A stretch of DNA of 64,000 bases from Bdellovibrionales bacterium. Lineage in GTDB: Bacteria; Bdellovibrionota; Bdellovibrionia; Bdellovibrionales; UBA1609. Under the pieces are notes generated by a model. That model saw only the letters and a list, made by a program, of their open reading frames with translations. It ran no database searches and was not told where the DNA came from. The DNA lies in the NCBI GenBank assembly GCA_965261545.1, contig CBDHDF010000011.1:736001-800000 (forward strand), read 5' to 3'. Shown here piece by piece: positions 3,856 to 43,342 of the stretch; the first letter of the stretch is position 1, and every line of letters starts with the position of its first letter. The position numbers were made by a program, and so were the translations under genes.

Positions 3856-6344
3856 AAATTCACCTCCAATTACTAAGTTAAATATTAAGTCAATTTAATT
3901 TAAATTAAATAAAGTTAAGTTAAGTCATAGATATTAGGCATCAGATTGGCTATTAGGTGTTGAGGCACTTAATGCGGCCAAATACCAAGTGTTACAAGGC
4001 CAAAACCCCATTCTTGTCGTGCTCCTATCTTTAGCACGCCCTTATTTGTTTTCATTGAGTCCATGGTTTTTTGAAAAATTTCAAAATTAGCACTTTTACC
4101 GCCATCACAAAAGAGGACACCCCCTGGGGGTAGTACCGATCGAAGTGGCAGGGGTTTGCGTGTCAATGAGTTCCATCCTCCGATTCGCTGTGGCCGGTCC
4201 AAACATGCAGAAACAACAAGGGCTCCACCTAGAGCCTCAATGGGTTTCTTGCCACAATAAATCTCTTTTTTGAGATCAAGAGGTGACAATGCAATAACTG
4301 CTATTCGCCCATTTTGATCATTCTTGATCTTCTCCTTGATTTCCTCTAGAGGCAGTTTAAGGTACGAATCAGTGCTCCATTCTTTACACTCCACAAGTCG
4401 ACTTTCACCACCAAAGGGTACCAGTTGATTCACTCCGGTGGGAGGATCAAAGGGTAACTTCCAATTTTCTGGAATGCCGGTGATATTTGCCCCAATAGAA
4501 ACTCCTCGTATCAAGCGTACATGGCGAGTGCTGTAGAGCATTCCTTCTTGGGCGGCTCGCGTTTCAGTGCAACGCTTAAGTCCTATGCGTAGCTCTTCAC
4601 TCCAAAGTTCTGACTTAGGCACAATATCCTCTTGTGAGGGGATTTCACCTTGAAGTACTTTCTCCATGCCTCTTTGTGTAAGCCACAAACCTTCTCCTGT
4701 CTTAGCGGGCTTAGTAGTCTGCGCAGGGTTATAGCTTCCCGGTGCTTCAGGAAGTTGAGCGTTGTTACCTAGTTCCTGTCCAGGGAAGAAAGTTAAGTAG
4801 TTTTAAGTATTTACATGCCTTCCCTTTAGATTTTATGCTTTAAAATGGAGTCCATCAAACATAATCCGTGTAAATTCAGTTACTTACATAAAACGGAAAA
4901 ATAAAATAAGTTCCCCCCCCTCTCTTGACGAACCTTTCACAGCCCCTCCCTTTCAGTGACTTATGTGGCTATCAACTGGTTACTTGATATGAGAGGAAGA
5001 GTTGGATCAACCTGTGTTTCCACCGTGGTGATTTCAAACCTCCTTCAGGGAAATAACATTACGTTGCGCATCAACTTCAAAAAATACTTGACGTGTTTTT
5101 TCAGAGAAATAATTTTTGATATTTTATTCTTCATTTATTTTTTATGTAGGTTTTAGGAGGCGTGGGAACCTCTCTATGAGGTAGAATTCTTATCCATGTT
5201 CTCCGAGAACCTCTCTGATTTTTTTCTTCTTAAAAGACATCCTTGCTCACTTTTTTCCCTCAAAAAAACGTATGTTAATATAAAAATTAAAGAGAAACTT
5301 TCACCAAAGGGGGGACTATGCGCCATTTGAAGAAGACACAGTTGGGACTCTTTTCCCAATATCCTAACCACCAACTCAGTACAGAATTGCAGCAAATTAA
5401 TAACATCATTGATCGCCATCCAGAGTTTGCCCATATGGTTCATGAAGACCTTGTTAAAGAAAAGAAAGATTCTGGTGATATTGGTATGACATCGGAGCAA
5501 GTTCTCAAGGTGGCTATTCTTAAATCCATAAGAGGTCTTTCCTATCGTGCGTTAGCCTTTAATCTTGTCGATTCAGTATCCACCAGAGCTTTTCTGGGCC
5601 TTGAATTGGAAGAAAATTACGCTCACTCCACCTTACAGGACTTGATTGTTCAAATAAGTGAAGAAACTTGGGGAATTATTAGCGCCTCTTTAGTTTCAGA
5701 TGCAAGAGATCAAAAGATTGAGCCGTGTAAGAAAATGAGATTGGACAGTACAGTGACGAAATCAAATATTCATCATCTGTTAGCTGACAATTAAAATGCC
5801 CCACCGTCGCCAATGAAAAGTGGCCACTTTTCAGAGGAGGACCTATGGTGATTTTTGGCATTGTCAACCGAGACGCATATAATCAATTGATATTACTCAT
5901 AAAAAGGCTCCGAGCTGATAAGAACTCCTTTTGGGTTCTTGTCGACCTGGAAAGGGGCTCCGTGTTGGAGAGTCCTTCCATGACAGCCTATTCAGGTTCC
6001 ATATTTGTCATTTGTAGACTGTTTCTGGATTTCAATGAGGTTAAATATATAGTCAAGAAAAGCCTGTTTAGGCTGTGCCCATTTTCTAAAGTATTTAAAT
6101 TCCACAAGATTCCAACATTTGCCTCAATTTTCATGGAATTTCTTTCTGAAGACAGGCTTCCCTTAAAGCCGTCGCCAATTAAAATGTCCCACTTTCAATA
6201 TGGAGGTTGTCGCCAATGAAAAGTGACCAATCTTCAGGGAGTGTTCAAATACTAGACAATGAAGTCTCTTCTTCTGATATAGATACTAAGCTCACAGAGT
6301 CCCTCCCTTTTGCAACTCAAAAGGTTAGCAATGAGGAGGATCTT

Positions 6345-7811
6345 ATGATTAGTCAATACACTTTCGGCCGCATTCGTGACCTGAGTCACAGTGGTAAAAA
6401 TAAGACAGAAATATCTCGTGAATTAGGGATCAATCGTAAGACGGTGCGCAAGTACTGTGAGTCCAACACCCCACCGAAGTACAAGGCGAGGTCCAAAAGA
6501 ACTCGCCCAGATCCCCTTAATGGATATATGGATCGGGTGAAGTACTTTTTGAAGTTGAACCCAAGTAACACCGCCCGTGAAATATATGAGCTATTAGTTG
6601 AGGAGGGTTATCGTGGGAGTGAGAGAACGGTTCAGAGAAGAGTTTGTGAGATTCTTGGTTCTCGCCCCAAGGAGCGTTTTTTCAGCCAAAGATATGATCC
6701 TGGAGAACAGGCTCAGTTTGATTTTAAGGAGAAGGTTGCTTTACCATTTGCCGATGGTGTTCAGATCGTTCATCTCCATTTTGGAACATTGCCTTGTAGT
6801 GGCACCTGTTGGGTTCGTGCCTACCCCTTTCTTGTCTATGAGTGTTTCATCGATGGGGTGCATGCTTTTTTTGAAAAGATAGGTGGGATGAGTGCGAACA
6901 TCCGTATTGATAATTTATCTCCCTGTGTGAAGAAAGTTCTTAAAGGAAATCAGCGAATTTACACCCAATCTTTTGATCGAGCCATCCAATACTATGGATT
7001 TAAGGTTCTTCCCTGCCGCGCAGGGAAGGGCTCTGACAAGGGAGATGTGGAGCGTGATATTCGAACCTTCAGTTCTCGGATAAAAAATATTGTTAGAAAC
7101 AAAGGAATTGTTTTTAAAGACTGGGATCATTTGAATCAGTTTTTAGAGTCTTATATGGATCAGCATCAGAGTGACTCCACCAAATCTCGCTTTGAGGAGG
7201 AGGCCAAAGTTCTTAAGCCTTTGCCTCCACGAGATGAAGATATTCTCTGTAAGGTGAATATTTGTCAAAGTAATGGTTATGGGACTTTGAGAATAGGTAA
7301 AACCACATATTCCATACCTGATGAGGTGATCCAAGCTCCCTGTAAAACCGTACAGGGTCCCTATCATGTCACGATCTATCGTGCAGGAGGGAAGCAAGAA
7401 ATTGTCGCTCGCCATCAAAGAAAACCTGATGGGGAGCATAGTCTTCTTCTTGAACATATCCTTCCCTCTTTAGTTCGTAAGCCGCAAGCCATGGTAAGAT
7501 GGGCTCACCGATCCATTCTTTTTCCAACAAATGTGTTTGAAAATTTTTATCAATACCTCAAGCAACAAGATTCAAGCCGTGCCGAGCATGAATATTTAAG
7601 AGTTATCAACTTGATTCAGCATGTGAGTTGGCAGGACTTATCTACAGCCATGGAGCTTCAATTAGAAAGTCGTGAGATTTTCGACTTTAAATCCATAAAA
7701 GATTTGCTCTTAGGAAATCCCACCAAAATTAATTTGAATGACCAACAAAAACCACTTCAACCTAGATTGTCTCAATATGACAGTCTTGTTCCAAACATAG
7801 GAGGTTCTTAA
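6345..7811 (+). CDS. istA: IS21 transposase IstA
   Basis: N-terminal HTH (ISRELGINRKTVRKY), PGEQAQFDF, IDN and KGDVER motifs; GAGGAGG RBS before ATG 6345. Confidence 0.93.
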   Translation: MISQYTFGRIRDLSHSGKNKTEISRELGINRKTVRKYCESNTPPKYKARSKRTRPDPLNGYMDRVKYFLKLNPSNTAREIYELLVEEGYRGSERTVQRRVCEILGSRPKERFFSQRYDPGEQAQFDFKEKVALPFADGVQIVHLHFGTLPCSGTCWVRAYPFLVYECFIDGVHAFFEKIGGMSANIRIDNLSPCVKKVLKGNQRIYTQSFDRAIQYYGFKVLPCRAGKGSDKGDVERDIRTFSSRIKNIVRNKGIVFKDWDHLNQFLESYMDQHQSDSTKSRFEEEAKVLKPLPPRDEDILCKVNICQSNGYGTLRIGKTTYSIPDEVIQAPCKTVQGPYHVTIYRAGGKQEIVARHQRKPDGEHSLLLEHILPSLVRKPQAMVRWAHRSILFPTNVFENFYQYLKQQDSSRAEHEYLRVINLIQHVSWQDLSTAMELQLESREIFDFKSIKDLLLGNPTKINLNDQQKPLQPRLSQYDSLVPNIGGS

Positions 7812-8593
7812 TGAATCACGAAGAACTTATAGGTTCTCTTAAAAAACTCCGACTTCCAGCGATGGCGGATGAATATGTTGCAACGGCTAGAGTTGCCGAA
7901 AAAACAAAAAAGACGTATGAACAGTATTTAGGTATACTCGTTCAAAATGAGCTTGCTGACAAGCATTCCCAGAGAGTGAAAAGATTGCTTAAGGGGGCCA
8001 AGCTTCCTCAACTTAAATCACTCCAAACTTATAACTTCCAGAAAAGAACGGGAGTGACAGCTCAGCAAATTAATTGGATGGCAGAGGGAGAGTGGGTCAG
8101 AAAAGCCTGTAATGTTGTGTTTTACGGAAGCTTTGGAATGGGGAAAAGTCATTTGGCCATGTCCCTAGTTCGTTCACTCTGTGAACAAGGCTATCGATGT
8201 TTATGGGTCACCACTCATGAACTTATTGAAACAATGCGTGAAAGCAAGAAAGAACTCTCATTGAATGCTCTTTTTAAGAAATTAGACCGTTTTGATCTTA
8301 TTGCTTGTGATGAACTTGGCTATACAGCTTCCTGCACAGAGGGGGCAGATCTTTTCTTTCAATTCATATCTCAGCGATATGAAAGGAAAAGTCTCATGAT
8401 CACTACAAACTTAACATACTCTGAATGGGATAAGGTGTTTCTTAACCCTATTACCACCGCTGCTGCTGTTGATCGAATCATTCACAACTGTGAAACCCTC
8501 AACATTGAAGGAAAAGAAAGTTGGAGAACCGAATCGGCAAAAGCCAAGTCTAAACAGAGCAAAGAGGAAAGTTCAACCAAAGAAGTTCATTAG
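7811..8593 (+). CDS. istB: IS21 helper ATPase IstB
   Basis: Walker A GSFGMGKS, Walker B LIACDELGY, ITTNL and AAVDRIIH. Confidence 0.95.
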   Translation: MNHEELIGSLKKLRLPAMADEYVATARVAEKTKKTYEQYLGILVQNELADKHSQRVKRLLKGAKLPQLKSLQTYNFQKRTGVTAQQINWMAEGEWVRKACNVVFYGSFGMGKSHLAMSLVRSLCEQGYRCLWVTTHELIETMRESKKELSLNALFKKLDRFDLIACDELGYTASCTEGADLFFQFISQRYERKSLMITTNLTYSEWDKVFLNPITTAAAVDRIIHNCETLNIEGKESWRTESAKAKSKQSKEESSTKEVH

Positions 8594-8620
8594 AGATCCC
8601 CACTTTTGGGGAAGGAACTC

Positions 8621-8718
8621 GCCAGTTATCCACAAAATTTATCCACAGCAGCACTGCGTTGCTAGACATCGGGGTCACAGCCGCAGTGTCGCCATGGATA
8701 AATTTATGGATAACTGGC
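8621..8718 (+). other. Conserved ~95-nt hairpin with TTATCCACA motifs downstream of istB (also near 23259 and 41988)
   Basis: Self-complementary GCCAGTTATCCA...TGGATAACTGGC with inner stem CACTGCG/CGCAGTG; homologous to 16992-17086. Confidence 0.7.
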
Positions 8719-10557
8719 TTTTACCGTACTATTTGCTCGTCACTCTCGCGGAGCTTTAGACATTAGCTGCGCCAAGGAATCCTGAAAAATACTCCATTTA
8801 CCTCTGCCATAGGGCTGAAGGATGCATTTGGGGTCATGCCAAAAGTGGTGGGCAGAAAATCATTCCTCAGAATCTTGTGGCATAGTCCGAGTTAAATGAT
8901 GAGCAAAATAAAGACACTTGACTAAACTCTGAACGAAGAATAACTAAATCAGTACATCATCAACTGGCCGTTTTTCATTGGCGACGGCTTCTAAAACTGG
9001 CCAATTTTAATTGGCGCCTAACATCATCCAACGGATGCATCGCTTTTATATGACTGCATAAGAGTTACAGAAAGAGAATTTAAAAAAGTTCGTAAAAATG
9101 TCATGAAAGATTTTTGGCGACTTATTTCAAGAGAAGATCTTAAGAGAGCAAAAACCTTGCTTTACAAAATTAATAATTCCAAAAATGATGCGGAAAGACT
9201 ACCTTGCTATAAGGAGCTTTTAAAAATCGCTACCAAATTGAACAAAGGATTACCTGATACCATCAGAAAGATAAAAAAAGAACAAAAATGTGTGAAGATG
9301 AATGCTTTGAAAAAGAGTCTAAAACAGTTAGAAAATGTTGCCTTCTACCTGGAAAAAATCATCTTTCAAACTCAAAAAAGAGTTATTGAGGGGAAAAAAG
9401 TATCTTCTGAAAAAAAGGTCCTATCCATCTTTGAACCGCATACAGACATTATTGTAAAGGGGCAAAGAGAAGTCGAGTTTGGGCATAAAATCTTTTTGAC
9501 CTCAGGGCAAAGCAACATGATTTTAGATTGTCAGATCCCTGATGGCAACCCCGCAGACTCTGATATGTTTTTAAAAGTTATGAATTCAGTGACACAAACC
9601 TATGGGGCTTGCCCTGTAAAAGTAAGTGCAGATGGTGGGTTTGCTTCAAAAGAAAATCTTGAAGAGGCCAAAGAGATGGGGGCTAAAGATGTTTGCTTCC
9701 CAGAAAAAAAAGGAATGAAAATATTAAAGATGGTTAAAAGTGCTTGGGTCTTTAAAAATCTTCTCAATTGGAGAGCCGGAATAGAGGCTGTTATTTCATT
9801 CCTTAAGAGATGTTTTGGTATGAGAGTTGCTTACTGGAAAGGGCATGATGGTTTTAAGAGGTATGTAAAGAATGCCGTTTGTGCCTATAATTTTGTTGTC
9901 TTGGCAAGACATGAATTATCAACTGTCACCTAAATTTATCCATTAGGAATAACAGCAATGGACCAGGTCGAAGGTGCTAAAATCTTCCAAAGGTAGGGGT
10001 GCGTCTTCAAATCGAAAAAACTAGGGCGCAAGTCGCTTAAAGACCTTTTTCCCCTTAATCTGTAGAGTTTGTGTGGCAAATCTCCAACTCTCACTCCCCC
10101 ATTGAGGCATTGGGAGGCTCAATGGGGAGTGTCAGAGAACAAAAAATGGGCCTTTCTGGACAGAAACTACCTAGGTCGCACTCAACCTCAGGGCCTGGGC
10201 GCAGAAACACCTTTGGAATCCATTTTTTATTTTCGGTAGAGCCAAGTAAGTGGCGAGGCATGGGAAAGAGTGGTTGTGGTTGTCCGTCACAAACTCGAAG
10301 TAAAAATGGACCATCTATGGAGAGTGTACCTAGGTTTTCCGGACCATCACCAAGAACTGCATTTATTTCCTCAGACCATTTTCCATGACCATTCCAACCG
10401 TTGCACAAGGCGAGTGCTGCACGAAGCACTCCGACCACTGACATAGGGTGAGGAGGAAACAAGCTCTCCACACCGCTTTGTGGTGCACTGTCTTTCGAAA
10501 AGGGAGTGCCACTACGAAAAAACAACGTGTCTAGTGGATCAAGTTGAATACCAGCCA

Positions 10558-15787: not shown

Positions 15788-16181
15788 GATAGAATAGAAA
15801 AACACTAAAATTTTTTTTGATACAAAAACCATAAATATTAAGGTGGTATCTCTTAATTTTTGTCAAATGCATCTAGCCTGTCGAAAGCAGAACCAAAACC
15901 TAGAATGAATTAAAATTATGTTTGAATTTTCAACCAATGACCAAGTAAGGAGGTGTGTCAAAATAAGTTGAACGGATTGAAGGCTCTTAACCATAAGAAA
16001 TACCACTGAATTGTCCGACTTACTTTGGGACAGCTCCTAAGGAATTAAATTTCTTTGGTGCAGCTTCAGTGCTTCAATGAAGCCGGGGGCAACTGTGCCC
16101 CGGGAATTATTTCTCAAACTATTTAAGACAAGGGAGGTCTTAATAGCTTCAATGAGGCCGGGGCAACTACACCCCGGAAAT
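15788..16181. repeat. 394-bp duplicated segment (array trailer, degenerate repeat, oldest spacer, one repeat); second copy at 18323-18716
   Basis: The two stretches read identically on direct comparison. Confidence 0.92.
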
Positions 16182-16301
16182 GATATATCCGCCTTAAATA
16201 TGGAGATACAAATTTTAATGCTTCAATGAGGCCGGGGCAACTACACCCCGGAAATCAGATGGACTATGAATTAGTTCAATGGCGACCTGCCAACGCGCTT
16301 C
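16071..16301 (-). CRISPR. Leaderless CRISPR array fragment: 3 repeats (1 degenerate), 3 spacers and a 5-nt repeat stub
   Basis: Repeats at 16071 (degenerate), 16146 and 16220; GCTTC stub at 16297-16301 abuts the IS110 element. Confidence 0.93.
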
Positions 16302-16320
16302 CACCTATGGAAGTGCCGCC

Positions 16321-16990
16321 GATGTGTTGGTGAGTTCCCGGACGTAGGTCCCCATTTAGATCGTCTGTTTTCAAAATTCGTCCTTGAACCCGACTATCCG
16401 CAATCTTGTTTCTATATCTGTTTTCTCACTGATACAGAAACAACCCACATGTAGGCTTCCTCGCTGCTGATCTTTATCCGGAAATCAAGTCTCTCAACTT
16501 ACCGAAACTTACCAAAACTATCAGCCCGTGGAACGAATTTCACACGATCCTATATTTAACTTACTCGGCTCTCTATTTCTCACGCTTGAGATGTTTTTTA
16601 CATTCAAGCTGGTTTTCTTTAATTATCAGGTACATAAAACAGCTGTGTCTTGCTCACCTATTCAAGGTCTTCACCCTTACGGGATCGCCTTATCCTGTTC
16701 CCCCTGCCGCCCATGTCAACATGCAGTAAATATCAGAGTCATAATTGCTCTATGGAGGTTCGTTGTCCATGGGGCGAGGCTCGTCACCGTTTTTATCAAG
16801 AAAATTTCAAGATTTACGAAGCTATTCAATCTTTTATCAAACTACATTATTTCATATTTCATAACTCCTCCCCCTCAGAAATGCCTAGCCACAGTCATTT
16901 GTAATGTAAAAGGCATAATTAAACTCCTGGGTATTCCTATTCCACCCAATGACTGCGTTACATGCAGCATACTAAGACCACTGAGGTGAG
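16321..16990 (-). ncRNA. Candidate bridge/seekRNA-encoding region of the IS1111-type element
   Basis: Non-coding on the transposase strand and downstream of the CDS, where IS1111-group guide RNAs are encoded; boundaries not defined. Confidence 0.5.
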
Positions 16991-16991
16991 T

Positions 16992-17086
16992 CAGTTATCC
17001 ACAGACTCATCCATGGTGACGCTGCGGCTATGGCCCTAGGGGAGCCAATAAGGCAGCGCTGCTGTGGATGAGTCTGTGGATAACTG
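16992..17086 (-). other. Conserved hairpin with TTATCCACA motifs downstream of the IS110 transposase
   Basis: Perfect inverted repeat CAGTTATCCACAGACTCATCCA / TGGATGAGTCTGTGGATAACTG; homologous to 8621-8718. Confidence 0.72.
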
Positions 17087-17162
17087 CGACGGAGTCTCCA
17101 CACAAGTGTGTTGGCAACTCTGTCCTCCGTGGTTTCATGTACAAAGCTCGGATCCTGAAATG

Positions 17163-18221
17163 CTAGGCTCCCATCTTCTCCAAATTGGCTTGGAAAGCAT
17201 ATTCCTTATAGCCACGGTTGTCCCGCAGCATCGCATAGCAGATACAGCTCATCTTGCGAGCCAGGGCCACAACAGCCTTATTGGTTCCCCTCCTCGACTC
17301 AACCTCTAAGGCCCATTTCCGAACAGGATCATCACATTTAGTGCTCTTTTTGAGCCAAGCCCGCGCCCCATGGATGAGATAGCGACGTAATATCTCATTG
17401 CCACTTTTGGTGATGGAGCCCATCATACGAGTGTTTGCTGAAGAGCTAACACTGGGAACTAAACCCAGGTAGCTGGCAAACTTACTGGCATCATCAAAAC
17501 GACTGATATCATCCACCACTGCCACCATAGCCGCAGCCGTGAGAAGACCAACTCCAGGCAAAGTTCTCAATTGTTTTACAGACTCTTTCTCCTGAACTAA
17601 AAACTCAATCCGGTGGGTGATAGACTTTTCTTGCTGTTGGAGGGCTTCGGCCTGACCGTACAATTCCTGAAGAGTGCTGCGAATAAAAGGATTGGGCACT
17701 TTGGAAATAGTCGCTGGTGCTTTCACCCAAAACTGATTTGCTCCCACGGGAATCGTAAGACCCTGTTCCCTCAAAAGACCTCTGATGTGGTTTGTTAAAC
17801 TCACCCGTGTGCCTACAGTAAGTTCACGGGAAACGAGCAGACTCTTTATGTCTCTGGAACCAGGACTACGGAGATGAACCTCACAATCACTATCAGGGTT
17901 CAGGCGCAGAAAAGTATTTAAAGCCTTGGCATCCCGCTCGTCGGTTTTCTTGCCGCTGATACCTATGCCCCTAAACTTGTTTGGGTTGATGATGTGAACA
18001 GTGTGACCCAAATCCTGTAATTTCTGGACATAGGGGTTAACCCCTCCTGTGGCCTCAATGGCTATCTCACAGGGTTCTCTATTTGAGAAATAGCGAGGAA
18101 GATTCTTCGTCTGAATACAACTGACTCTAGGGACTCCTTGAACCATTTCTCCCTTTTGATCTGTAGCATAAAGAACTGAGTTATTCTTGTGAAAATCGAC
18201 TCCTATGTATAACTTGGGCAT
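17163..18221 (-). CDS. IS110-family DEDD recombinase/transposase (352 aa)
   Basis: MPKLYIGVDFHK, IEAT, KTDERDA, LPGVG, YLGLVP..SSS and AVVALARK motifs; AAGGAG RBS before ATG 18221. Confidence 0.95.
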   Translation of the reverse strand: MPKLYIGVDFHKNNSVLYATDQKGEMVQGVPRVSCIQTKNLPRYFSNREPCEIAIEATGGVNPYVQKLQDLGHTVHIINPNKFRGIGISGKKTDERDAKALNTFLRLNPDSDCEVHLRSPGSRDIKSLLVSRELTVGTRVSLTNHIRGLLREQGLTIPVGANQFWVKAPATISKVPNPFIRSTLQELYGQAEALQQQEKSITHRIEFLVQEKESVKQLRTLPGVGLLTAAAMVAVVDDISRFDDASKFASYLGLVPSVSSSANTRMMGSITKSGNEILRRYLIHGARAWLKKSTKCDDPVRKWALEVESRRGTNKAVVALARKMSCICYAMLRDNRGYKEYAFQANLEKMGA

Positions 18222-18605
18222 TGCCGCTCCTTTCGTTTGTGAGCCTTTTGAGCTCGGTTTTTGTGTGGATAAGTATAACAACTTAGACCACGATGAAAAG
18301 GGGCGGCACTTCCATGCCTCCAGATAGAATAGAAAAACACTAAAATTTTTTTTGATACAAAAACCATAAATATTAAGGTGGTATCTCTTAATTTTTGTCA
18401 AATGCATCTAGCCTGTCGAAAGCAGAACCAAAACCTAGAATGAATTAAAATTATGTTTGAATTTTCAACCAATGACCAAGTAAGGAGGTGTGTCAAAATA
18501 AGTTGAACGGATTGAAGGCTCTTAACCATAAGAAATACCACTGAATTGTCCGACTTACTTTGGGACAGCTCCTAAGGAATTAAATTTCTTTGGTGCAGCT
18601 TCAGT

Positions 18606-19235
18606 GCTTCAATGAAGCCGGGGGCAACTGTGCCCCGGGAATTATTTCTCAAACTATTTAAGACAAGGGAGGTCTTAATAGCTTCAATGAGGCCGGGGCA
18701 ACTACACCCCGGAAATACCGTGCACAGCCCAATCGCGTCTTTCTGTGCTTCAGGGCTTCAATGAGGCCGGGGCAACTACACCCCGGAAATTTGTGATGGA
18801 GAACCACGCAGCGAGATTCTTTGATTGCTTCAATGAGGCCGGGGCAACTACACCCCGGAAATAGTGGAAGAAAGTGAGCGACATGTGCTTCAGCCAAGCG
18901 CTTCAATGAGGCCGGGGCAACTACACCCCGGAAATGCAGACTTTGGCTACACGAATACCACATATGCCAAATTCATGCTTCAATGAGGCCGGGGCAACTA
19001 CACCCCGGAAATAATGTAAAAGTTACGAATTAGAAGAAATAGTAGAAAAATAGCTTCAATGAGGCCGGGGCAACTACACCCCGGAAATTATTACGGCACG
19101 GAACAAGTTATTGAGTACATTGAGAGGCTTCAATGAGGCCGGGGCAACTACACCCCGGAAATTGGTATTGGTAAGGTTCTAATGTCTCTCGAAACAGGCG
19201 CTTCAATGAGGCCGGGGCAACTACACCCCGGAAAT
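18606..19235 (-). CRISPR. CRISPR array with 9 repeats (terminal one degenerate) and 8 spacers of 36-41 bp; repeat ATTTCCGGGGTGTAGTTGCCCCGGCCTCATTGAAGC
   Basis: Repeats start at 18606, 18681, 18755, 18827, 18900, 18977, 19053, 19127 and 19200; CCGGGG/CCCCGG hairpin; ATTGAAGC 3' end on the minus strand. Confidence 0.98.
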
Positions 19236-19474
19236 AGTCCCTATATATGTTTTTAGATTTATTGGGTTTTATGGTCATTCTGCGAGGACTGTAGTTTTTG
19301 GCACTTAATGATCTCAAATTACCTCCCAAACAATCTTTATGATATACCCTATCACCTTGAAATACAAGAGAAAATTGAAATGCGAGCGCTAGTAGTAATT
19401 TTCACAGAACTCAAGCTCTCGCAAGCCATCACGGCAGCTTTAGTCCATCCACCTTTGCCTCGATGGTGGGTGGA
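19236..19474 (-). promoter_or_regulatory. CRISPR leader
   Basis: AT-rich non-coding stretch between cas2 and the first perfect repeat; the degenerate repeat is at the opposite end. Confidence 0.8.
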
Positions 19475-19797: not shown

Positions 19798-20982
19798 GTT
19801 TCTGTCCAGAAAGGCCCATTTTTTGTTCTCTGACACTCCCCATTGAGCCTCCCAATGCCTCAATGGGGGAGTGAGAGTTGGAGATTTGCCACACAAACTC
19901 TACAGATTAAGGGGAAAAAGGTCTTTAAGCGACTTGCGCCCTAGTTTTTTCGATTTGAAGACGCACCCCTACCTTTGGAAGATTTTAGCACCTTCGACCT
20001 GGTCCATTGCTGTTATTCCTAATGGATAAATTTAGGTGACAGTTGATAATTCATGTCTTGCCAAGACAACAAAATTATAGGCACAAACGGCATTCTTTAC
20101 ATACCTCTTAAAACCATCATGCCCTTTCCAGTAAGCAACTCTCATACCAAAACATCTCTTAAGGAATGAAATAACAGCCTCTATTCCGGCTCTCCAATTG
20201 AGAAGATTTTTAAAGACCCAAGCACTTTTAACCATCTTTAATATTTTCATTCCTTTTTTTTCTGGGAAGCAAACATCTTTAGCCCCCATCTCTTTGGCCT
20301 CTTCAAGATTTTCTTTTGAAGCAAACCCACCATCTGCACTTACTTTTACAGGGCAAGCCCCATAGGTTTGTGTCACTGAATTCATAACTTTTAAAAACAT
20401 ATCAGAGTCTGCGGGTGTTAGCTGACAATTAAAATGCCCCACCGTCGCCAATGAAAAGTGGCCACTTTTCAGAGGAGGACCTATGGTGATTTTTGGCATT
20501 GTCAACCGAGACGCATATAATCAATTGATATTACTCATAAAAAGGCTCCGAGCTGATAAGAACTCCTTTTGGGTTCTTGTCGACCTGGAAAGGGGCTCCG
20601 TGTTGGAGAGTCCTTCCATGACAGCCTATTCAGGTTCCATATTTCTCATTTGTAGACTGTTTCTGGATTTCAATGAGGTTAAATATATAGTCAAGAAAAG
20701 CCTGTTTAGGCTGTGCCCATTTTCTAAAGTATTTAAATTCCACAAGATTCCAACATTTGCCTCAATTTTCATGGAATTTCTTTTTGAAGACAGGCTTCCC
20801 TTAAAGCCGTCGCCAATTAAAATGTCCCACTTTCAATATGGAGGTTGTCGCCAATGAAAAGTGACCAATCTTCAGGGAGTGTTCAAATACTAGACAATGA
20901 AGTCTCTTCTTCTGATATAGATACTAAGCTCACAGAGTCCCTCCCTTTTGCAACTCAAAAGGTTAGCAATGAGGAGGATCTT

Positions 20983-22449
20983 ATGATTAGTCAATACACT
21001 TTCGGCCGCATTCGTGACCTGAGTCACAGTGGTAAAAATAAGACAGAAATATCTCGTGAATTAGGGATCAATCGTAAGACGGTGCGCAAGTACTGTAAGT
21101 CCAACACCCCACCGAAGTACAAGGCGAGGTCCAAAAGAACTCGCCCAGATCCCCTTAATGGATATATGGATCGGGTGAAGTACTTTTTGAAGTTGAACCC
21201 AAGTAACACCGCCCGTGAAATATATGAGCTATTAGTTGAGGAGGGTTATCGTGGGAGTGAGAGAACGGTTCAGAGAAGAGTTTGTGAGATTCTTGGTTCT
21301 CGCCCCAAGGAGCGTTTTTTCAGCCAAAGATATGATCCTGGAGAACAGGCTCAGTTTGATTTTAAGGAGAAGGTTGCTTTACCATTTGCCGATGGTGTTC
21401 AGATCGTTCATCTCCATTTTGGAACATTGCCTTGTAGTGGCACCTGTTGGGTTCGTGCCTACCCCTTTCTTGTCTATGAGTGTTTCATCGATGGGGTGCA
21501 TGCTTTTTTTGAAAAGATAGGTGGGATGAGTGCGAACATCCGTATTGATAATTTATCTCCCTGTGTGAAGAAAGTTCTTAAAGGAAATCAGCGAATTTAC
21601 ACCCAATCTTTTGATCGAGCCATCCAATACTATGGATTTAAGGTTCTTCCCTGCCGCGCAGGGAAGGGCTCTGACAAGGGAGATGTGGAGCGTGATATTC
21701 GAACCTTCAGTTCTCGGATAAAAAATATTGTTAGAAACAAAGGAATTGTTTTTAAAGACTGGGATCATTTGAATCAGTTTTTAGAGTCTTATATGGATCA
21801 GCATCAGAGTGACTCCACCAAATCTCGCTTTGAGGAGGAGGCCAAAGTTCTTAAGCCTTTGCCTCCACGAGATGAAGATATTCTCTGTAAGGTGAATATT
21901 TGTCAAAGTAATGGTTATGGGACTTTGAGAATAGGTAAAACCACATATTCCATACCTGATGAGGTGATCCAATCTCCCTGTAAAACCGTACAGGGTCCCT
22001 ATCATGTCACGATCTATCGTGCAGGAGGGAAGCAAGAAATTGTCGCTCGCCATCAAAGAAAACCTGATGGGGAGCATAGTCTTCTTCTTGAACATATCCT
22101 TCCCTCTTTAGTTCGTAAGCCGCAAGCCATGGTAAGATGGGCTCACCGATCCATTCTTTTTCCAACAAATGTGTTTGAAAATTTTTATCAATACCTCAAG
22201 CAACAAGATTCAAGCCGTGCCGAGCATGAATATTTAAGAGTTATCAACTTGATTCAGCATGTGAGTTGGCAGGACTTATCTACAGCCATGGAGCTTCAAT
22301 TAGAAAGTCGTGAGATTTTCGACTTTAAATCCATAAAAGATTTGCTCTTAGGAAATCCCACCAAAATTAATTTGAATGACCAACAAAAACCACTTCAACC
22401 TAGATTGTCTCAATATGACAGTCTTGTTCCAAACATAGGAGGTTCTTAA
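20983..22449 (+). CDS. istA: IS21 transposase IstA
   Basis: Near-identical to copy 1. Confidence 0.93.
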   Translation: MISQYTFGRIRDLSHSGKNKTEISRELGINRKTVRKYCKSNTPPKYKARSKRTRPDPLNGYMDRVKYFLKLNPSNTAREIYELLVEEGYRGSERTVQRRVCEILGSRPKERFFSQRYDPGEQAQFDFKEKVALPFADGVQIVHLHFGTLPCSGTCWVRAYPFLVYECFIDGVHAFFEKIGGMSANIRIDNLSPCVKKVLKGNQRIYTQSFDRAIQYYGFKVLPCRAGKGSDKGDVERDIRTFSSRIKNIVRNKGIVFKDWDHLNQFLESYMDQHQSDSTKSRFEEEAKVLKPLPPRDEDILCKVNICQSNGYGTLRIGKTTYSIPDEVIQSPCKTVQGPYHVTIYRAGGKQEIVARHQRKPDGEHSLLLEHILPSLVRKPQAMVRWAHRSILFPTNVFENFYQYLKQQDSSRAEHEYLRVINLIQHVSWQDLSTAMELQLESREIFDFKSIKDLLLGNPTKINLNDQQKPLQPRLSQYDSLVPNIGGS

Positions 22450-23231
22450 TGAATCACGAAGAACTTATAGGTTCTCTTAAAAAACTCCGACTTCCAGCGA
22501 TGGCGGATGAATATGTTGCAACGGCTAGAGTTGCCGAAAAAACAAAAAAGACGTATGAACAGTATTTAGGTATACTCGTTCAAAATGAGCTTGCTGACAA
22601 GCATTCCCAGAGAGTGAAAAGATTGCTTAAGGGGGCCAAGCTTCCTCAACTTAAATCACTCCAAACTTATAACTTCCAGAAAAGAACGGGAGTGACAGCT
22701 CAGCAAATTAATTGGATGGCAGAGGGAGAGTGGGTCAGAAAAGCCTGTAATGTTGTGTTTTACGGAAGCTTTGGAATGGGGAAAAGTCATTTGGCCATGT
22801 CCCTAGTTCGTTCACTCTGTGAACAAGGCTATCGATGTTTATGGGTCACCACTCATGAACTTATTGAAACAATGCGTGAAAGCAAGAAAGAACTCTCATT
22901 GAATGCTCTTTTTAAGAAATTAGACCGTTTTGATCTTATTGCTTGTGATGAACTTGGCTATACAGCTTCCTGCACAGAGGGGGCAGATCTTTTCTTTCAA
23001 TTCATATCTCAGCGATATGAAAGGAAAAGTCTCATGATCACTACAAACTTAACATACTCTGAATGGGATAAGGTGTTTCTTAACCCTATTACCACCGCTG
23101 CTGCTGTTGATCGAATCATTCACAACTGTGAAACCCTCAACATTGAAGGAAAAGAAAGTTGGAGAACCGAATCGGCAAAAGCCAAGTCTAAACAGAGCAA
23201 AGAGGAAAGTTCAACCAAAGAAGTTCATTAG
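22449..23231 (+). CDS. istB: IS21 ATPase IstB
   Basis: Protein identical to copy 1. Confidence 0.95.
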   Translation: MNHEELIGSLKKLRLPAMADEYVATARVAEKTKKTYEQYLGILVQNELADKHSQRVKRLLKGAKLPQLKSLQTYNFQKRTGVTAQQINWMAEGEWVRKACNVVFYGSFGMGKSHLAMSLVRSLCEQGYRCLWVTTHELIETMRESKKELSLNALFKKLDRFDLIACDELGYTASCTEGADLFFQFISQRYERKSLMITTNLTYSEWDKVFLNPITTAAAVDRIIHNCETLNIEGKESWRTESAKAKSKQSKEESSTKEVH

Positions 23232-25193
23232 AGATCCCCACTTTTGGGGAAGGAACTCGCCAGTTATCCACAAAATTTATCCACAGCAGCACTGCGTTGC
23301 TAGACATCGGGGTCACAGCCGCAGTGTCGCCATGGATAAATTTATGGATAACTGGCTTTTACCGTACTATTTGCTCGTCACTCTCGCGGAGCTTTAGACA
23401 TTAGCTGCGCCAAGGAATCCTGAAAAATACTCCATTTACCTCTGCCATAGGGCTGAAGGATGCATTTGGGGTCATGCCAAAAGTGGTGGGCAGAAAATCA
23501 TTCCTCAGAATCTTGTGGCATAGTCCGAGTTAAATGATGAGCAAAATAAAGACACTTGACTAAACTCTGAACGAAGAATAACTAAATCAGTACATCATCA
23601 ACTGGCCGTTTTTCATTGGCGACGGCTTCTAAAAATGGCCAATTTTAATTGGCGCCTAACAGCGGGGTTGCCATCAGGGATCTGACAATCTAAAATCATG
23701 TTGCTTTGCCCTGAGGTCAAAAAGATTTTATGCCCAAACTCGACTTCTCTTTGCCCCTTTACAATAATGTCTGTATGCGGTTCAAAGATGGATAGGACCT
23801 TTTTTTCAGAAGATACTTTTTTCCCCTCAATAACTCTTTTTTGAGTTTGAAAGATGATTTTTTCCAGGTAGAAGGCAACATTTTCTAACTGTTTTAGACT
23901 CTTTTTCAAAGCATTCATCTTCACACATTTTTGTTCTTTTTTTATCTTTCTGATGGTATCAGGTAATCCTTTGTTCAATTTGGTAGCGATTTTTAAAAGC
24001 TCCTTATAGCAAGGTAGTCTTTCCGCATCATTTTTGGAATTATTAATTTTGTAAAGCAAGGTTTTTGCTCTCTTAAGATCTTCTCTTGAAATAAGTCGCC
24101 AAAAATCTTTCATGACATTTTTACGAACTTTTTTAAATTCTCTTTCTGTAACTCTTATGCAGTCATATAAAAGCGATGCATCCGTTGGATGATGAATATT
24201 TGATTTCGTCACTGTACTGTCCAATCTCATTTTCTTACACGGCTCAATCTTTTGATCTCTTGCATCTGAAACTAAAGAGGCGCTAATAATTCCCCAAGTT
24301 TCTTCACTTATTTGAACAATCAAGTCCTGTAAGGTGGAGTGAGCGTAATTTTCTTCCAATTCAAGGCCCAGAAAAGCTCTGGTGGATACTGAATCGACAA
24401 GATTAAAGGCTAACGCACGATAGGAAAGACCTCTTATGGATTTAAGAATAGCCACCTTGAGAACTTGCTCCGATGTCATACCAATATCACCAGAATCTTT
24501 CTTTTCTTTAACAAGGTCTTCATGAACCATATGGGCAAACTCTGGATGGCGATCAATGATGTTATTAATTTGCTGCAATTCTGTACTGAGTTGGTGGTTA
24601 GGATATTGGGAAAAGAGTCCCAACTGTGTCTTCTTCAAATGGCGCATAGTCCCCCCTTTGGTGAAAGTTTCTCTTTAATTTTTATATTAACATACGTTTT
24701 TTTGAGGGAAAAAAGTGAGCAAGGATGTCTTTTAAGAAGAAAAAAATCAGAGAGGTTCTCGGAGAACATGGATAAGAATTCTACCTCATAGAGAGGTTCC
24801 CACGCCTCCTAAAACCTACATAAAAAATAAATGAAGAATAAAATATCAAAAATTATTTCTCTGAAAAAACACGTCAAGTATTTTTTGAAGTTGATGCGCA
24901 ACGTAATGTTATTTCCCTGAAGGAGGTTTGAAATCACCACGGTGGAAACACAGGTTGATCCAACTCTTCCTCTCATATCAAGTAACCAGTTGATAGCCAC
25001 ATAAGTCACTGAAAGGGAGGGGCTGTGAAAGGTTCGTCAAGAGAGGGGGGGGAACTTATTTTATTTTTCCGTTTTATGTAAGTAACTGAATTTACACGGA
25101 TTATGTTTGATGGACTCCATTTTAAAGCATAAAATCTAAAGGGAAGGCATGTAAATACTTAAAACTACTTAACTTTCTTCCCTGGACAGGAAC

Positions 25194-28984: not shown

Positions 28985-31538
28985 CAATGGCATTCGTTTT
29001 TGCAGAAGGTTTTTCCACATTTTTCTGACTCCCTCTAACATACTGAGTTAAGGGGGCTTTTATCTTTTTTCTTTTTCCGAAAAAAAATACTTGAGTCCAC
29101 CCCATCGTTGTGTCACATTATATTTGAACCATTCCCAAAGGGGAGAGACTCAAATGGACCCACGCATAGAGACATTGCCTTCAACAACTTTTTTTGGAAG
29201 ACGCTTGACGCGCAAGCAAATTGCCGACATTCAAAAGACGGTGGCGCTATTTCCTTCTTTAAGTCGCCGTGAACTGGGTTATACAGTTTGTGAGCATCTT
29301 GGTTGGCTAACTCCCAAAGGTGATCATCGCATCCAATCGTGCCTTCGTATGCTTGAGACGCTAGAGGAACTTGACATTCTATCCCTGCCAGAAAAAGACA
29401 TGTCAAAGCGGAGTGTCCCCTCCAAAAAAATCACTTGGACACACCGAACAGATGAAAAGCCTCTCATCAACGATAAACTAGACTCATTGACCCCACTTTC
29501 TTTGCAAATCGTAACTGATCAAGAGGCCATTAAGGAATGGAATGAAGTTGTCGATCGGCATCATTATCTCAATTACAGACGTCCCTTTGGTCCCCATTTG
29601 CGCTATTTCATCCTAGATAATTGTGGGCGACGATTGGGTTGTCTTTTATTTGAAGCTGGCACATCCACTTTGCCTTGCCGTGATGAATGGATCGGTTGGC
29701 AAAATCGAGCTTACAAAAAGCACTTGAATTTAGTGGTGAACAATAGTCGATTTTTGATCTTTCCCTGGGTAAAGGTTCGCCATCTTGCTTCGATGGCTTT
29801 ATCTATGGCAACTCGCCAACTTCCCACAGACTGGGAGTTAAAACATGCTTTCAAACCTGTACTCATGGAGACTTTTGTCGACCTTACCAAATTTAATGCC
29901 ACGAGCTATCGTGCTGCCAACTGGCTTTATTTGGGCAAAACAAATGGGAGTCGTGCCTACAAAAATGTAAAGGGAAAAACTCAAAAAGGTGTTTATGTTC
30001 AACCTCTGACAAAGAATTATCAGTCTATCTTATTGAATGGCCCCCAATGCGCTATCAAGAAACCCGTCGGGAAACCCACCATCAAGCCACATAAGAACTT
30101 GGCTGAGCCTATGCTAGAGGACTCTTTTGTGCATCTTTGGCAAAACATCATCAAGACAGTGGTTATCATTGCAGATGAGTACGACCGAACCTGGCAAAAG
30201 CGTCAACGTGTCTTGAATACATTGTTGATTATACTTTTCATCTTCCGACTTGTTTTCTCTAAAGGAAAACAAGGTTATGATACAACTTTGATTGAACTTT
30301 GGGAGCAGTGTCGCATATTAGACATTGAACTCCCTCAACCTAAACCAGTTCGGGCATCCACTATGTGTAGTGCACGGGCTAAAGTAGATGAAAATATATT
30401 TAAAGTTTTGCATGATGAAATTCTTAAACAAGACGGTATATCCAATTCTAGTACCTTATGGAAGGGCCATAAGGTTTTCGCAGTGGATGGATCGAAAATA
30501 AATTTACCACGTCAACTCGTAGATAATGGGTATCAGCAACCATGGGAAAAAGCATGGTACCCTCAAGGTCTTGTCAGTTGCCTGTACCAACTACAGTCGA
30601 AGATTCCTGTGGATTTTGATCTCTTTGCCCATAACAATGAGAGAAAGGCTGCACAAACTCATTTCAAAAAATTGTTTGAAAACGATGTTGTGGTTTATGA
30701 TCGTGGCTATTATTCCTACGAAATGCTTCATGAGCATAAGGTGCGAAGTCTGCATGCGGTGTTTAGGATAAGGAGAAATGCCAACACTGTTTTTGATGAA
30801 TTTATTAATAATGATCAAAAAGACTCAGTGATCCAAGTCATTCCTAGCAAGCAAATTCTGAAAGAACTACATAAAAAAAAGCCACAAGACGACTTCAAAG
30901 CCTACGCTTTGCGTTTGGTCAAATATAAAATTGGACAAACTACTTTTGTTCTAGGAACAACCTTAATGGATCAAAAAAAATATTCCATTGATGATCTGGC
31001 CAATCTCTATCATGGACGCTGGAGTATAGAGGAACTGTACAAAATATCCAAAGAACTGATGACCATTGAAGAGTTTCATTCTCAAAGTGAAAGGGGAGTC
31101 AAACAAGAATTGTTTGCACACTTCACACTTATCACTCTGACAAGATTATTTTCCAACTACACGGAAGACCGTCTTAATACATCTCAATCCCATAGTAAAA
31201 AACAAACCATGCAGACAAACTTTAAAAACAATTTACTGACAATTGCAAGAAATATTGAAGGTCTTTTTCTTCAACAAAAGGTAGTGCTTAGTAAAACCCT
31301 CAATTGCATCATTACAAATATGAAGACCTGCCGACAAAGGCTACGTCCGAATAGGCATTACGACCGAGTTTCTAGAAAACCCATCGGAGTATGGAGACCC
31401 AGTAAAGAGGTTAGGGGGGCTATGGCCAACGGATAATCACATGGATCAAAGAAAAAAACTTGGGGTTAGCCCACCCCCGAGGAGTTAGAGGTTCAAATCC
31501 TTAACCGAATGGGATCTCTCACTAAACGAATGCCATTG
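28985..31538 (+). mobile_element. IS4-family element B (2554 bp)
   Basis: IR CAATGGCATTCGTTT / AAACGAATGCCATTG; 10-bp TSD CCTCTTCATG. Confidence 0.93.
29154..31436 (+). CDS. DUF4338 (Druantia DruA-like) domain fused to an IS4 DDE transposase
   Basis: N-half has HHYLNY, RDEWIGW, VVNNSRFLIFPWV, LMETFVD and YRAANW.YLG.T.G; C-half has AVDGS, YDRGY and YHGRWSIEELYK. Confidence 0.85.
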   Translation: MDPRIETLPSTTFFGRRLTRKQIADIQKTVALFPSLSRRELGYTVCEHLGWLTPKGDHRIQSCLRMLETLEELDILSLPEKDMSKRSVPSKKITWTHRTDEKPLINDKLDSLTPLSLQIVTDQEAIKEWNEVVDRHHYLNYRRPFGPHLRYFILDNCGRRLGCLLFEAGTSTLPCRDEWIGWQNRAYKKHLNLVVNNSRFLIFPWVKVRHLASMALSMATRQLPTDWELKHAFKPVLMETFVDLTKFNATSYRAANWLYLGKTNGSRAYKNVKGKTQKGVYVQPLTKNYQSILLNGPQCAIKKPVGKPTIKPHKNLAEPMLEDSFVHLWQNIIKTVVIIADEYDRTWQKRQRVLNTLLIILFIFRLVFSKGKQGYDTTLIELWEQCRILDIELPQPKPVRASTMCSARAKVDENIFKVLHDEILKQDGISNSSTLWKGHKVFAVDGSKINLPRQLVDNGYQQPWEKAWYPQGLVSCLYQLQSKIPVDFDLFAHNNERKAAQTHFKKLFENDVVVYDRGYYSYEMLHEHKVRSLHAVFRIRRNANTVFDEFINNDQKDSVIQVIPSKQILKELHKKKPQDDFKAYALRLVKYKIGQTTFVLGTTLMDQKKYSIDDLANLYHGRWSIEELYKISKELMTIEEFHSQSERGVKQELFAHFTLITLTRLFSNYTEDRLNTSQSHSKKQTMQTNFKNNLLTIARNIEGLFLQQKVVLSKTLNCIITNMKTCRQRLRPNRHYDRVSRKPIGVWRPSKEVRGAMANG

Positions 31539-35748: not shown

Positions 35749-37684
35749 ACCACCTTGTGGAGTCCTACAGAGAAAAAGGCAAATCCAAAAAACGCATGCT
35801 CATGTCCTTAGGTAAGGCTGGAGAAGGAGGAGAGGATAAGATTAATAGTTTGGCGCAGGCCGTATCCCGCCACCGAGAGCTTCTCACTGTGAGTCAATTG
35901 GCTAAGGAGCTTTACATCGAAGAGACTTTCATTTTGGGTCCCTTGCTGATTTTACAAAAGTTGTTTGATCAACTGGGTATCAATAAGACCCTCAAAGACA
36001 TAAAAGATTCTCATGAGAAAGTTCAATTTGATTTATGTAAGGTGATTTTTACCTTAGTTGCCAGCCGATTTATTGCTCCTAGTTCCAAGTTAAAGGTTTT
36101 TGAGTATTGGCAAAAATCTTTTTACCCAGACATGATTAAGGGTGATTTGAGTCTCCAGCATATTTATCGGTCTATGGACTTACTTGCCTCCCATAAGGAT
36201 GAAATAGAGAACTCGCTTTATTGGGTGGGGCGAGATTTATTTAATTTCCAAGTAGACATTGTGTTGTATGATTTAACAACCTTACGCTTCGAGAGTACAA
36301 GAACAGACTTAGGGAAACTTCGTCAATTTGGCTATAGTAAAGAGAGACGATCAGACTGCACCCAAGTTGTCTTTGGTTTGTTGGTGAATCGGGATGGCAT
36401 CCCTTTAGGTTTTGAGGTTTTCCCTGGTAATACTTTTGAAGGCAAGACGCTTTCAGATATTGTTGATAAAATGAGAAAAAAGTTTAATGTACGCCGTTTC
36501 ATTTTTGTGGCTGATAGGGGGCTTTTATCAAAGGCTAATACTGACAAACTCAGTGAGGATCAAAGCGAGTTTATTGTTGGTATGAAGCTTGGATCTTTAA
36601 AAAAAGAAAAGAAACAAGAGGTCTATGATTTAAATCGTTTTAGCTGGGTATATGAGAATGAGCTTGCTGTTTACGAAACAGACCATGGGGGGCATAGATG
36701 TATTGTGACTTGGTCTAGGAAAAGAGCAGAGAGAGATAAAAAATCTAGAGAATCCCTTCTTGAAAAGATCGAAGGAAAACTATCTTCTAAAGGTGTTCAG
36801 TCTAGTACTTTTGTTTCCAATAAAGGTTATAAGAAATATGTAAAGATGGCTGACGACAAAAATAAAAAACCTGAATTAAATGCAGAACAAATAGAATTAG
36901 ATGAAAAAATTGATGGTTTTTTTGCCGTCCTTACAAATGTCAAAGACTTGACGGCAGATGAGATTATTATCAACTACAAAGAATTGTGGAAAATTGAAGA
37001 TGCTTTTGGTGAGTTAAAAGGGACTTTGAAAACACGTCCTGTTTTCCATTGGACAGACCAGAGGATTATTGGACATTTAACTCTATGCTTTTTAACTTAT
37101 CTTTGTGAGGCCCACCTTGTTAGCTGACAATTAAAATGCCCCACCGTCGCCAATGAAAAGTGGCCACTTTTCAGAGGAGGACCTATGGTGATTTTTGGCA
37201 TTGTCAACCGAGACGCATATAATCAATTGATATTACTCATAAAAAGGCTCCGAGCTGATAAGAACTCCTTTTGGGTTCTTGTCGACCTGGAAAGGGGCTC
37301 CGTGTTGGAGAGTCCTTCCATGACAGCCTATTCAGGTTCCATATTTGTCATTTGTAGACTGTTTCTGGATTTCAATGAGGTTAAATATATAGTCAAGAAA
37401 AGCCTGTTTAGGCTGTGCCCATTTTCTAAAGTATTTAAATTCCACAAGATTCCAACATTTGCCTCAATTTTCATGGAATTTCTTTCTGAAGACAGGCTTC
37501 CCTTAAAGCCGTCGCCAATTAAAATGTCCCACTTTCAATATGGAGGTTGTCGCCAATGAAAAGTGACCAATCTTCAGGGAGTGTTCAAATACTAGACAAT
37601 GAAGTCTCTTCTTCTGATATAGATACTAAGCTCACAGAGTCCCTCCCTTTTGCAACTCAAAAGGTTAGCAATGAGGAGGATCTT

Positions 37685-40420: not shown

Positions 40421-40525
40421 ATTTGCCCCCTGCGTTTAAAAAATAAAAATTTCCTCCAATTAATCTTGACCTATTAAGATACTAACGCGAGAATCATTAA
40501 GTCTGTAGATAACTCACTTGTATCT

Positions 40526-40989: not shown

Positions 40990-41177
40990 GTCTCTTAAAA
41001 CACATGGCTTGTCGTGGATATCAAATGTCAATCTGCGTCCATTTCTCAAAATACCATCTATAAATATTTATAAATCGCCCACTTCCCTCTATGTAAAAAA
41101 GGAGGCTTGAAAAGTATTTCCATTAATTCGGAATTAAAATTAGAAAAAAACCACGAACACCTATGAGGAGGTTCTTA

Positions 41178-41960: not shown

Positions 41961-42573
41961 AGATCCCCACTTTTGGGGAAGGAACTCGCCAGTTATCCAC
42001 AAAATTTATCCACAGCAGCACTGCGTTGCTAGACATCGGGGTCACAGCCGCAGTGTCGCCATGGATAAATTTATGGATAACTGGCTTTTACCGTACTATT
42101 TGCTCGTCACTCTCGCGGAGATTTAGACATTAGCTGCGCCAAGGAATCCTGAAAAATACTCCATTTACCTCTGCCATAGGGCTGAAGGATGCATTTGGGG
42201 TCATGCCAAAAGTGGTGGGTAGAAAATCATTCCTCAGAATCTTGTGGCATAGTCCGAGTTAAATGATGAGCAAAATAAAGACACTTGACTAAACTCTGAA
42301 CGAAGAATAACTAAATCAGTACATCATCAACTGGCCGTTTTTCATTGGCGACGGCTTCTAAAAATGGCCAATTTTAATTGGCGCCTAACACACCTTACAA
42401 AATGTTTAAGAGATAAGAAGATGAACCTAAAAAGCCCAGCCATAGGCATTGGTCATGTTAAAGAGCGACCTTTAACTGTTGTAGAGGCCATGAGGGAACT
42501 CAAGGAAGTTAGGGCTATCCCTGTTAAAATTCGTGATCAAGTCATTTGGACCCGCACAGATATCACTGGCAAT

Positions 42574-43199: not shown

Positions 43200-43342
43200 G
43201 CCAACTCCTTATTTAAAGCCGCAGGCGTCCCCATCCCTCCCAGAATCCTTAATGCCCACAAGTGTGGATAAACAAAATACAACTATATGCGTTAATCCTT
43301 TAATATCATTCGTTTGACGCAGATGCTGCTGTCAAACTCGGG

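Follow-up and report, generated by a model that had tools for sequence, protein, structure and literature searches.

REP/BIME, PATE and MITE sequences and attC sites are short palindromes that are tied to mobile DNA, and attC sites carry RYYYAAC ahead of GTTRRRY in a cassette context. A fold-back stem with DnaA boxes has been described for the A site of the ABC primosome (Masai 1990, as related in PMC6127211), for which a strand-specific fold is predicted; according to the same account, a DnaA-box hairpin in single-stranded DNA (ssDNA) suffices for DnaB loading and primed synthesis. A covarying hairpin near transposases is known as the alpha-transposases motif of alpha-proteobacteria (Weinberg 2007, PMC1950547), which has a 10-15-bp stem and weak sequence conservation, and its authors leave open whether it acts as RNA or DNA. 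A DnaA site within an insertion sequence (IS) has been described in the outer end of Tn5/IS50, as a single box in the terminal repeat of a cut-and-paste element (PMC3347997). The IS3, IS21, IS110/IS1111 and ISL3 families are all listed as circle-forming (10.1101/2023.06.07.543989), and transposition by copy-out-paste-in is outlined as requiring replication of a one-strand-bridged intermediate (10.1101/2023.06.07.543989; PMC9345347).

We analyzed a window of 64,000 nucleotides, i.e., the whole stretch of DNA under study, from a Bdellovibrionales bacterium, in which a hairpin with DnaA boxes lies behind transposase genes. Like the A site, this hairpin holds DnaA boxes in its stem, but it has two tandem boxes per arm and lies inside ISs; the comparison is drawn on description. 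Its stem of 27+6 bp differs from that of the alpha-transposases motif, for which the passages of PMC1950547 on the motif do not mention DnaA boxes; the two are set apart by description only. Tn5/IS50, as presented in PMC3347997, has no hairpin and is not a portable module. Clusters of the oriC type likewise have tandem boxes of 12-bp pitch in inverted pairs, whereas our hairpin has no dnaA linkage, occurs in about 100 copies and has an upper stem with wobbles. It also differs from REP/BIME, PATE and MITE sequences in having neither free copies nor ends of its own, and identity with REP, MITE or PATE was rejected because 0 of 110 loci were free-standing. An attC site was rejected as well, since the hairpin has GTT on the 5' side and AAC on the 3' side, facing the opposite way, without a cassette context. 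A full-text search, with subscription journals outside its scope, found no description of DnaA-box hairpins at IS 3' ends. Passages of PMC5737381, PMC3971601, PMC6006769, 10.64898/2026.08.14.744561 and 10.64898/2026.09.22.753630 do not describe the hairpin, and it might be among the candidate motifs listed in their supplements.

The hairpin and its host elements in the window

As the preliminary description stated, a hairpin lies 3' of the last gene in both IS110 and IS21 elements; its coordinates (Table 1) and NCBIfam searches, which confirmed the IS21 (IstA/IstB), IS110 and ISL3 families, bear this out. The IS21 copies that had been placed near 8621, 23259 and 41988 were recovered at the three positions listed. 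On the + strand, the IS110 copy folds into a 27-bp stem with G.T wobbles, one mismatch, a 6-bp stem and an apical loop. Each arm of the hairpin holds two tandem DnaA boxes at a pitch of 12-13 bp; the inner box TCATCCATG of the IS110 copy is paired via G.T wobbles, and IS21a copy 1 has two perfect boxes, at 8626 and 8639. The window family has no GNA loop. The distance from the stop codon to the hairpin is 29 nt for istB and 76 nt for IS110. When folded as DNA, both strands reached z = -8.8 to -10.9, and 0 of 200 shuffles folded equally well. The IS110 and IS21 versions align end to end, as had been claimed, at 75% over 96 columns (blastn E 5.6e-10, this genome), and the compensatory changes that had been quoted between them are present. 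In Rfam 15, including its transposase-associated motifs, the hairpin had no match at the gathering score, and the E-value mode returned only sub-threshold miRNA hairpins.

Table 1. Positions of the hairpin modules, their DnaA boxes, host elements and neighboring features in the window
Feature	Position	Strand	Remarks
IS21a element	5778..9023	+	istA 6345-7811, istB 7811-8593
Doubled left end of IS21a	5778-6237		encloses a 124-aa ORF
Further IS21a copies	20416-23661; 37118-42390
Hairpin module, IS21a copy 1	8623..8716	-	better-folding strand antisense to istB
Hairpin module, IS21a copy 2	23261..23354	-
Hairpin module, IS21a copy 3	41990..42083	-	host element split by IS4
IS110-family element, IS1111 type	16302..18321	-	2020 bp; subterminal inverted repeats 16307-16320 and 18302-18315
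IS110 transposase	17163..18230	-	355 aa, start codon picked within the element; NF033542 E 3.4e-74; Pfam
Hairpin module, IS110 copy	16992..17086	+	95 nt; + strand is antisense to transposase and folds better
Outer DnaA box, left arm, IS110 copy	16995..17003	+	TTATCCACA, perfect; host oriC boxes for comparison
Inner DnaA box, left arm, IS110 copy	17007..17015	+	TCATCCATG, imperfect; 12-bp pitch
Inner DnaA box, right arm, IS110 copy	17063..17071	-	TCATCCACA, one mismatch
Outer DnaA box, right arm, IS110 copy	17075..17083	-	perfect
Extended segment, IS110 right end	16968..17148		about 180 bp; shared with ISL3 right end (84-89%)
Single DnaA box, IS110 left end	18264..18272	-	perfect; directly after a TATACT -10-like hexamer
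CRISPR array divided by IS110	16071-16301; 18606-19270
394-bp repeat flanking IS110	15788-16181; 18323-18716		CRISPR leader and two repeats
IS4 transposase	29091-31436		fused to a DruA-like domain; about 20 genome copies

The IS110 element has a long non-coding 3' end, and this, with its subterminal inverted repeats, makes it one of the IS1111 type. The preliminary description considered an RNA processing or stability element just 5' of the putative bridge-RNA region. The closest IS110 relatives (46% and 41%) are without the module; among 13 IS110 relatives, none showed similarity to it, 12 lacked a hairpin of any such kind and one had a different hairpin. With the wobbles on the antisense strand, an inverted copy in ISL3 and no such hairpin in 12 of the 13 relatives, a role in the transposase mRNA or in bridge-RNA processing is not supported. 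A component of the bridge RNA or seekRNA was rejected, as it fails conservation in related IS110 non-coding ends and has antisense polarity.

Several further features of the window were recorded. The closest relative (L049) lacks the left-end box of the IS110. All three IS110 copies lie between long direct repeats (394 bp, 81 bp and at least 471 bp), the other copies being at G000:C7:185642-187661 and G000:C7:466501-469708. These repeats start with GAA and end before CCGA, as if two target halves were used far apart; duplication of intervening segments is mentioned in 10.64898/2026.08.14.744561. The left portion of the divided CRISPR array has two spacers, each single-copy in the genome, and the CRISPR-Cas loci of the window are full of ISs. 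In a 38-copy transposase that is IS1634-like by eye (window position 43263; G000:C2:102539-104200), the terminal codons spell a perfect DnaA box beside an inverted variant box.

Distribution, pairing and strand polarity in the genome

Blastn located 110 hairpin loci in the genome (intron-split copies are counted twice), all of them 3' of a transposase gene, so that the proposed association with transposases holds at every locus. Assignment by 60-nt flanks gave 64 loci in IS21a (56 full), 18 in a second IS21 (IS21b), 25 in ISL3 (21 full) and three in IS110. The ISL3 element is 1720 bp long, and its 15 full copies have short target duplications. Throughout, the hairpin lies 29-80 nt past the final stop codon, and its orientation is inverted in ISL3. 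No free-standing copy was found outside the flanks of these four ISs, so the tiny mobile unit suggested earlier is not supported as a free MITE or REP. IS21a and IS21b are 23% identical in IstA and 25% in IstB, yet their hairpins are 91.6% identical, and one IS21a/IS21b hybrid element was found. The likeness of these hairpins despite divergent proteins, together with the segment of about 180 bp common to IS110 and ISL3, indicates transfer of the module from one element to another. The hairpin is missing from high-copy elements (IS256, IS3 and two other IS21s, with names taken in part from reading the sequence) and from the remaining multicopy transposases of the genome. Hairpin orientation showed no bias relative to GC skew (41 v 44), a weak test because 39% of the genome is repeated sequence, which includes dozens of multicopy IS families. 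In DNA contigs of one sample, an IS21 circle junction was not seen, and this carries no weight either way.

Group II introns are inserted within the hairpin, every one on the better-folding strand, at five of seven sites for one intron and one of two for another (G000:C2:463513, C2:47906, C10:508799, C11:695143, C11:1056590 and C10:111602). We did not accept intron insertion as proof of ssDNA folding: the argument is weak, because the main intron inserts into sequence of a similar kind elsewhere too.

Perfect DnaA boxes number 298 in the genome against about 48 expected, and 195 of them are inside the hairpin. Behind the host dnaA gene lie boxes with the same consensus (oriC). The DnaA link drawn in the preliminary description therefore stands as far as the boxes are concerned, which are genuine DnaA-box sequences, and a link to replication appears to be the best option.

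Across seven variants, the 33 hairpin pairs are kept in 98.7% of 231 cells, compared with 27-50% for slid-partner controls, and changes are two-sided (compensatory) in four pairs and one-sided in five. None of 500 shuffles equalled this value, in a control that is blind to relatedness among variants, and three of the four two-sided changes divide the IS21 version from the remaining versions; thus, the pairing evidence is modest. The upper stem outside the boxes is also paired, with its own two-sided change at pair 32-70. Together with the hairpin identity across the two IS21s, these figures uphold the earlier view of a portable module under structure conservation.

The strand antisense to the IS21 and IS110 transposases has G.T at six pairs and A.C at one, and the sense strand that had been read before is therefore the less stable one; likewise, the module had been assigned to two IS families and is also found in a second IS21 and, inverted, in ISL3. 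For the window copies, the strand difference is small with DNA parameters (0.3-1.9 kcal/mol), and RNA parameters favor one strand of the IS110 and IS21 copies by 5-8 kcal/mol through G.U wobbles. Over a set of 20 hairpins, the antisense strand was more stable in 18 with RNA parameters and in 19 with DNA parameters, as opposed to 26 and 24 of 49 control hairpins, respectively. The difference between 18/20 and 26/49 has a Fisher p of 0.005, and the 20 hairpins represent about six lineages, for which a sign test gives p 0.03. A polarity-neutral detector placed the variant base on the same strand in 7 of 7 convincing hits. As regards the strand-specific fold predicted for the A site, polarity is clear across the analogues described below, but the strands of the window copies differ by only the small DNA-parameter value given above.

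Analogous hairpins in other bacteria

The hairpin family of the window was not found outside this genome by blastn, model and pattern searches of genomes, plasmids, viruses and metagenomes. Blastn detected it in 0 of 40 relatives and model R1 in 0 of 150 genomes of the class, for each of which 27 candidates were scored. Elsewhere, this model matched best to box clusters upstream of dnaA-like genes. Blastn of plasmids and phages gave one 30-bp match or none, and protein-anchored viral scans returned no relatives. Pattern scans yielded 5 viral and 14 genome matches that are box clusters or origins without a transposase (judged by eye from translations), and the inner-stem pattern had no viral match and eight metagenome matches, which are chance. 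Dense DnaA-box clusters were observed in viral contigs L021-L023 and L025, near terminase-like genes in L021-L023.

Analogous DnaA-box hairpins are present in other bacteria at the transposase 3' ends of IS3, IS21, IS110, ISL3 and IS481-like elements. A first family is common to an IS110, an IS3 on a Legionella plasmid and an IS481-like transposase; 14 of its 57 pairs have two-sided changes (4 sequences), and it contains the wobble duplex of the window family, ATCCATGG paired with CTGTGGGT, in permuted order. A second, Bradyrhizobium-type family is common to IS3 and IS21 elements from plasmids of Bradyrhizobium and Acidiphilium (10 of 44 records examined), and GCGNAGC makes a side arm in it. 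It is possible that this family overlaps the alpha-transposases motif as that motif is outlined in PMC1950547. Introns adjoin the analogous hairpin in Bradyrhizobium IS3 copies. Model R2, which was trained on copies from the same plasmids, found 16 places on 5 plasmids, some assigned by identical tail sequence, all at IS3 (13) or IS21 (3) 3' ends and in one orientation. Among the 20 hairpins, 10 contain words of the form X-C-GNA-G-X'; all 14 occurrences are antisense and none is on the sense strand, and some lie within stems.

The polarity-neutral detector found hairpins past istB at 4 of 29 Burkholderiales-order loci (two convincing) and 3 of 19 alphaproteobacterial loci, and in two complete genomes the inverted-box pattern matched only these istB ends. 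In the class of the window, it found a DnaA-box hairpin after 1 of 18 ISL3, 1 of 13 IS110 and 0 of 17 IS21 elements; in the Burkholderiales order, it found none after 27 IS110 and 25 IS4/IS5 elements. Both families above were reached from seeds among these hairpins. No convincing hairpin accompanies the single boxes (perfect or with one mismatch) that lie around or past the istB stop at 6 of the 29 IS21 loci of the Burkholderiales order (L140, L141, L143, L148, L154 and L156). A wider detector recorded hairpins for 7 of 150 ISs that form circles, 1 of 47 IS4/IS5 elements and 3 of 146 coding controls, so restriction to circle-forming ISs is not significant against IS4/IS5 (p 0.68) or coding controls (p 0.34). 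A phylum-wide analogue pattern gave 7 matches in 251 genomes, of which one was a real hairpin, against 22 control matches. These counts leave out loci L236, L263 and L355, repeat copies of one element and loci short of downstream DNA (18 from the wider-detector count). The hairpin is clearly dispensable for many ISs.

Candidate roles of the hairpin

The hairpin is real, portable and structure-conserved, and from it a mechanism may be proposed. Starting from its anatomy, its sharing between unrelated ISs, its conserved pairing and strand polarity, and the host boxes of the same consensus, we tentatively read it as a portable ssDNA signal that, by analogy with the ABC-primosome A site, would load DnaA and helicase for copy-out replication, a reading to which we give somewhat less than an even chance. 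It would be a cis-acting DNA element retained near the right end of circle-forming ISs, which would fold on the strand antisense to the transposase once this is single-stranded, presenting DnaA boxes in its stem. The folded stem may be bound by DnaA, with loading of the replicative helicase and of primase onto the displaced strand in the manner of the A site; copy-out replication, the step from the one-strand-bridged intermediate to an IS circle, would thereby be made faster. Should the left end attack the right end, it is from the right end that the antisense strand would first be displaced, and a hairpin there would load a 5'-to-3' helicase travelling through the element; the inverted ISL3 copy breaks this geometric argument. 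The module would act as an optional booster that is exchanged between ISs by recombination, and not as a core requirement.

The host encodes dnaA, dciA and priA. A host lacking PriA was rejected, and as PriA is present the host has an alternative restart route; with DciA in place of a tested DnaC, the helicase loader would differ from that of E. coli. Mini-hairpins of the GCGNAGC and CCGAAGG types, described as stabler in DNA than in RNA, occur where ssDNA is primed in phage G4 and at RSF1010 ssiA (PMC13037366). The GNA words on the antisense strand speak for the ssDNA-signal reading; the window family itself has no such loop, which counts against it. In addition, IS621 is not known to use copy-out, and as IS110 encodes a recombinase, its circles may not need it (10.1101/2023.06.07.543989). 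That unrelated circle-forming IS families carry an exchangeable strand-specific ssDNA origin, in which a DnaA-box hairpin loads helicase and primase on the displaced strand, is on the doubtful side.

An unlikely explanation, albeit one with some weight, is that the module works as double-stranded DNA, with two inverted box pairs forming a DnaA-binding cluster that may regulate the IS as a transcription roadblock, a transpososome modulator or a means of cell-cycle coupling. Arm symmetry would then be maintained by template switching or gene conversion and not by folding. The tandem boxes of 12-bp pitch in inverted pairs resemble oriC-like clusters, and since these likewise have complementary spacers, symmetry alone does not require folding. 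DnaA is described as binding the Tn5 end (PMC3347997), and a cluster that is independent of orientation is compatible with the inverted ISL3 copy. Single perfect boxes without a hairpin also follow several istB genes and occur at the left end of IS110, and the 15.9 kb examined downstream of 48 istB genes hold 18 near-consensus boxes, compared with 4 in 16.3 kb of coding sequence. However, such a cluster leaves unexplained the G.T polarity of one strand, the paired upper stem outside the boxes and the GNA side arms of the analogues.

It is distinctly improbable that the hairpin acts as RNA on transcripts running into the IS from the right end, or else on the mRNA of ISL3, as an RNase III substrate or stabilizer limiting read-through or transposase expression. 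The wobble preference for one strand is larger under RNA parameters, a stem of 27 bp has sufficient length for RNase III, and the host encodes this enzyme; side loops of the L056-type family can also be read as cUNCGg on the sense strand. Nevertheless, an RNA hairpin gives no reason for the recurrence of DnaA boxes at the stem in unrelated lineages. Inward promoters were not above chance (0 at the IS21 end, and 4 at the IS110 end against 1.8 +/- 1.2), the full stem is not followed by a U-tract, GCGNAGC arms are not readable as UNCG loops, and Rfam gave no match.

We give little probability to a palindrome that is selfish or neutral, possibly descended from a DnaA cluster of the origin type, and that rides along in the 3' regions of ISs while recombination between the many IS copies of this genome spreads it. 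Lateral movement between ISs is clear, the IS21a/IS21b hybrid is in line with it, and the occurrence is patchy, with the module absent from the 40 and 150 relatives searched. Against this, none of the 110 loci is a free copy, and terminal repeats or a target duplication of its own were not seen in the alignment; the compensatory changes and the fixed position 3' of the transposase imply selection. An intrinsic terminator was rejected, as the full stem received no terminator call and IS21 only one weak internal call.

Non-coding modules are shown here to move between unrelated IS families. If the tentative ssDNA-signal reading is true, a strand-specific ssDNA origin would be a missing cis-signal for the copy-out step, and the DnaA-box hairpin offers a concrete, mutable cis-element to which the existing ABC-primosome assay is applicable. 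The perfect boxes sitting in the hairpin could titrate the initiator DnaA; under the same reading, about 200 DnaA boxes would be in competition with oriC in IS-rich genomes.
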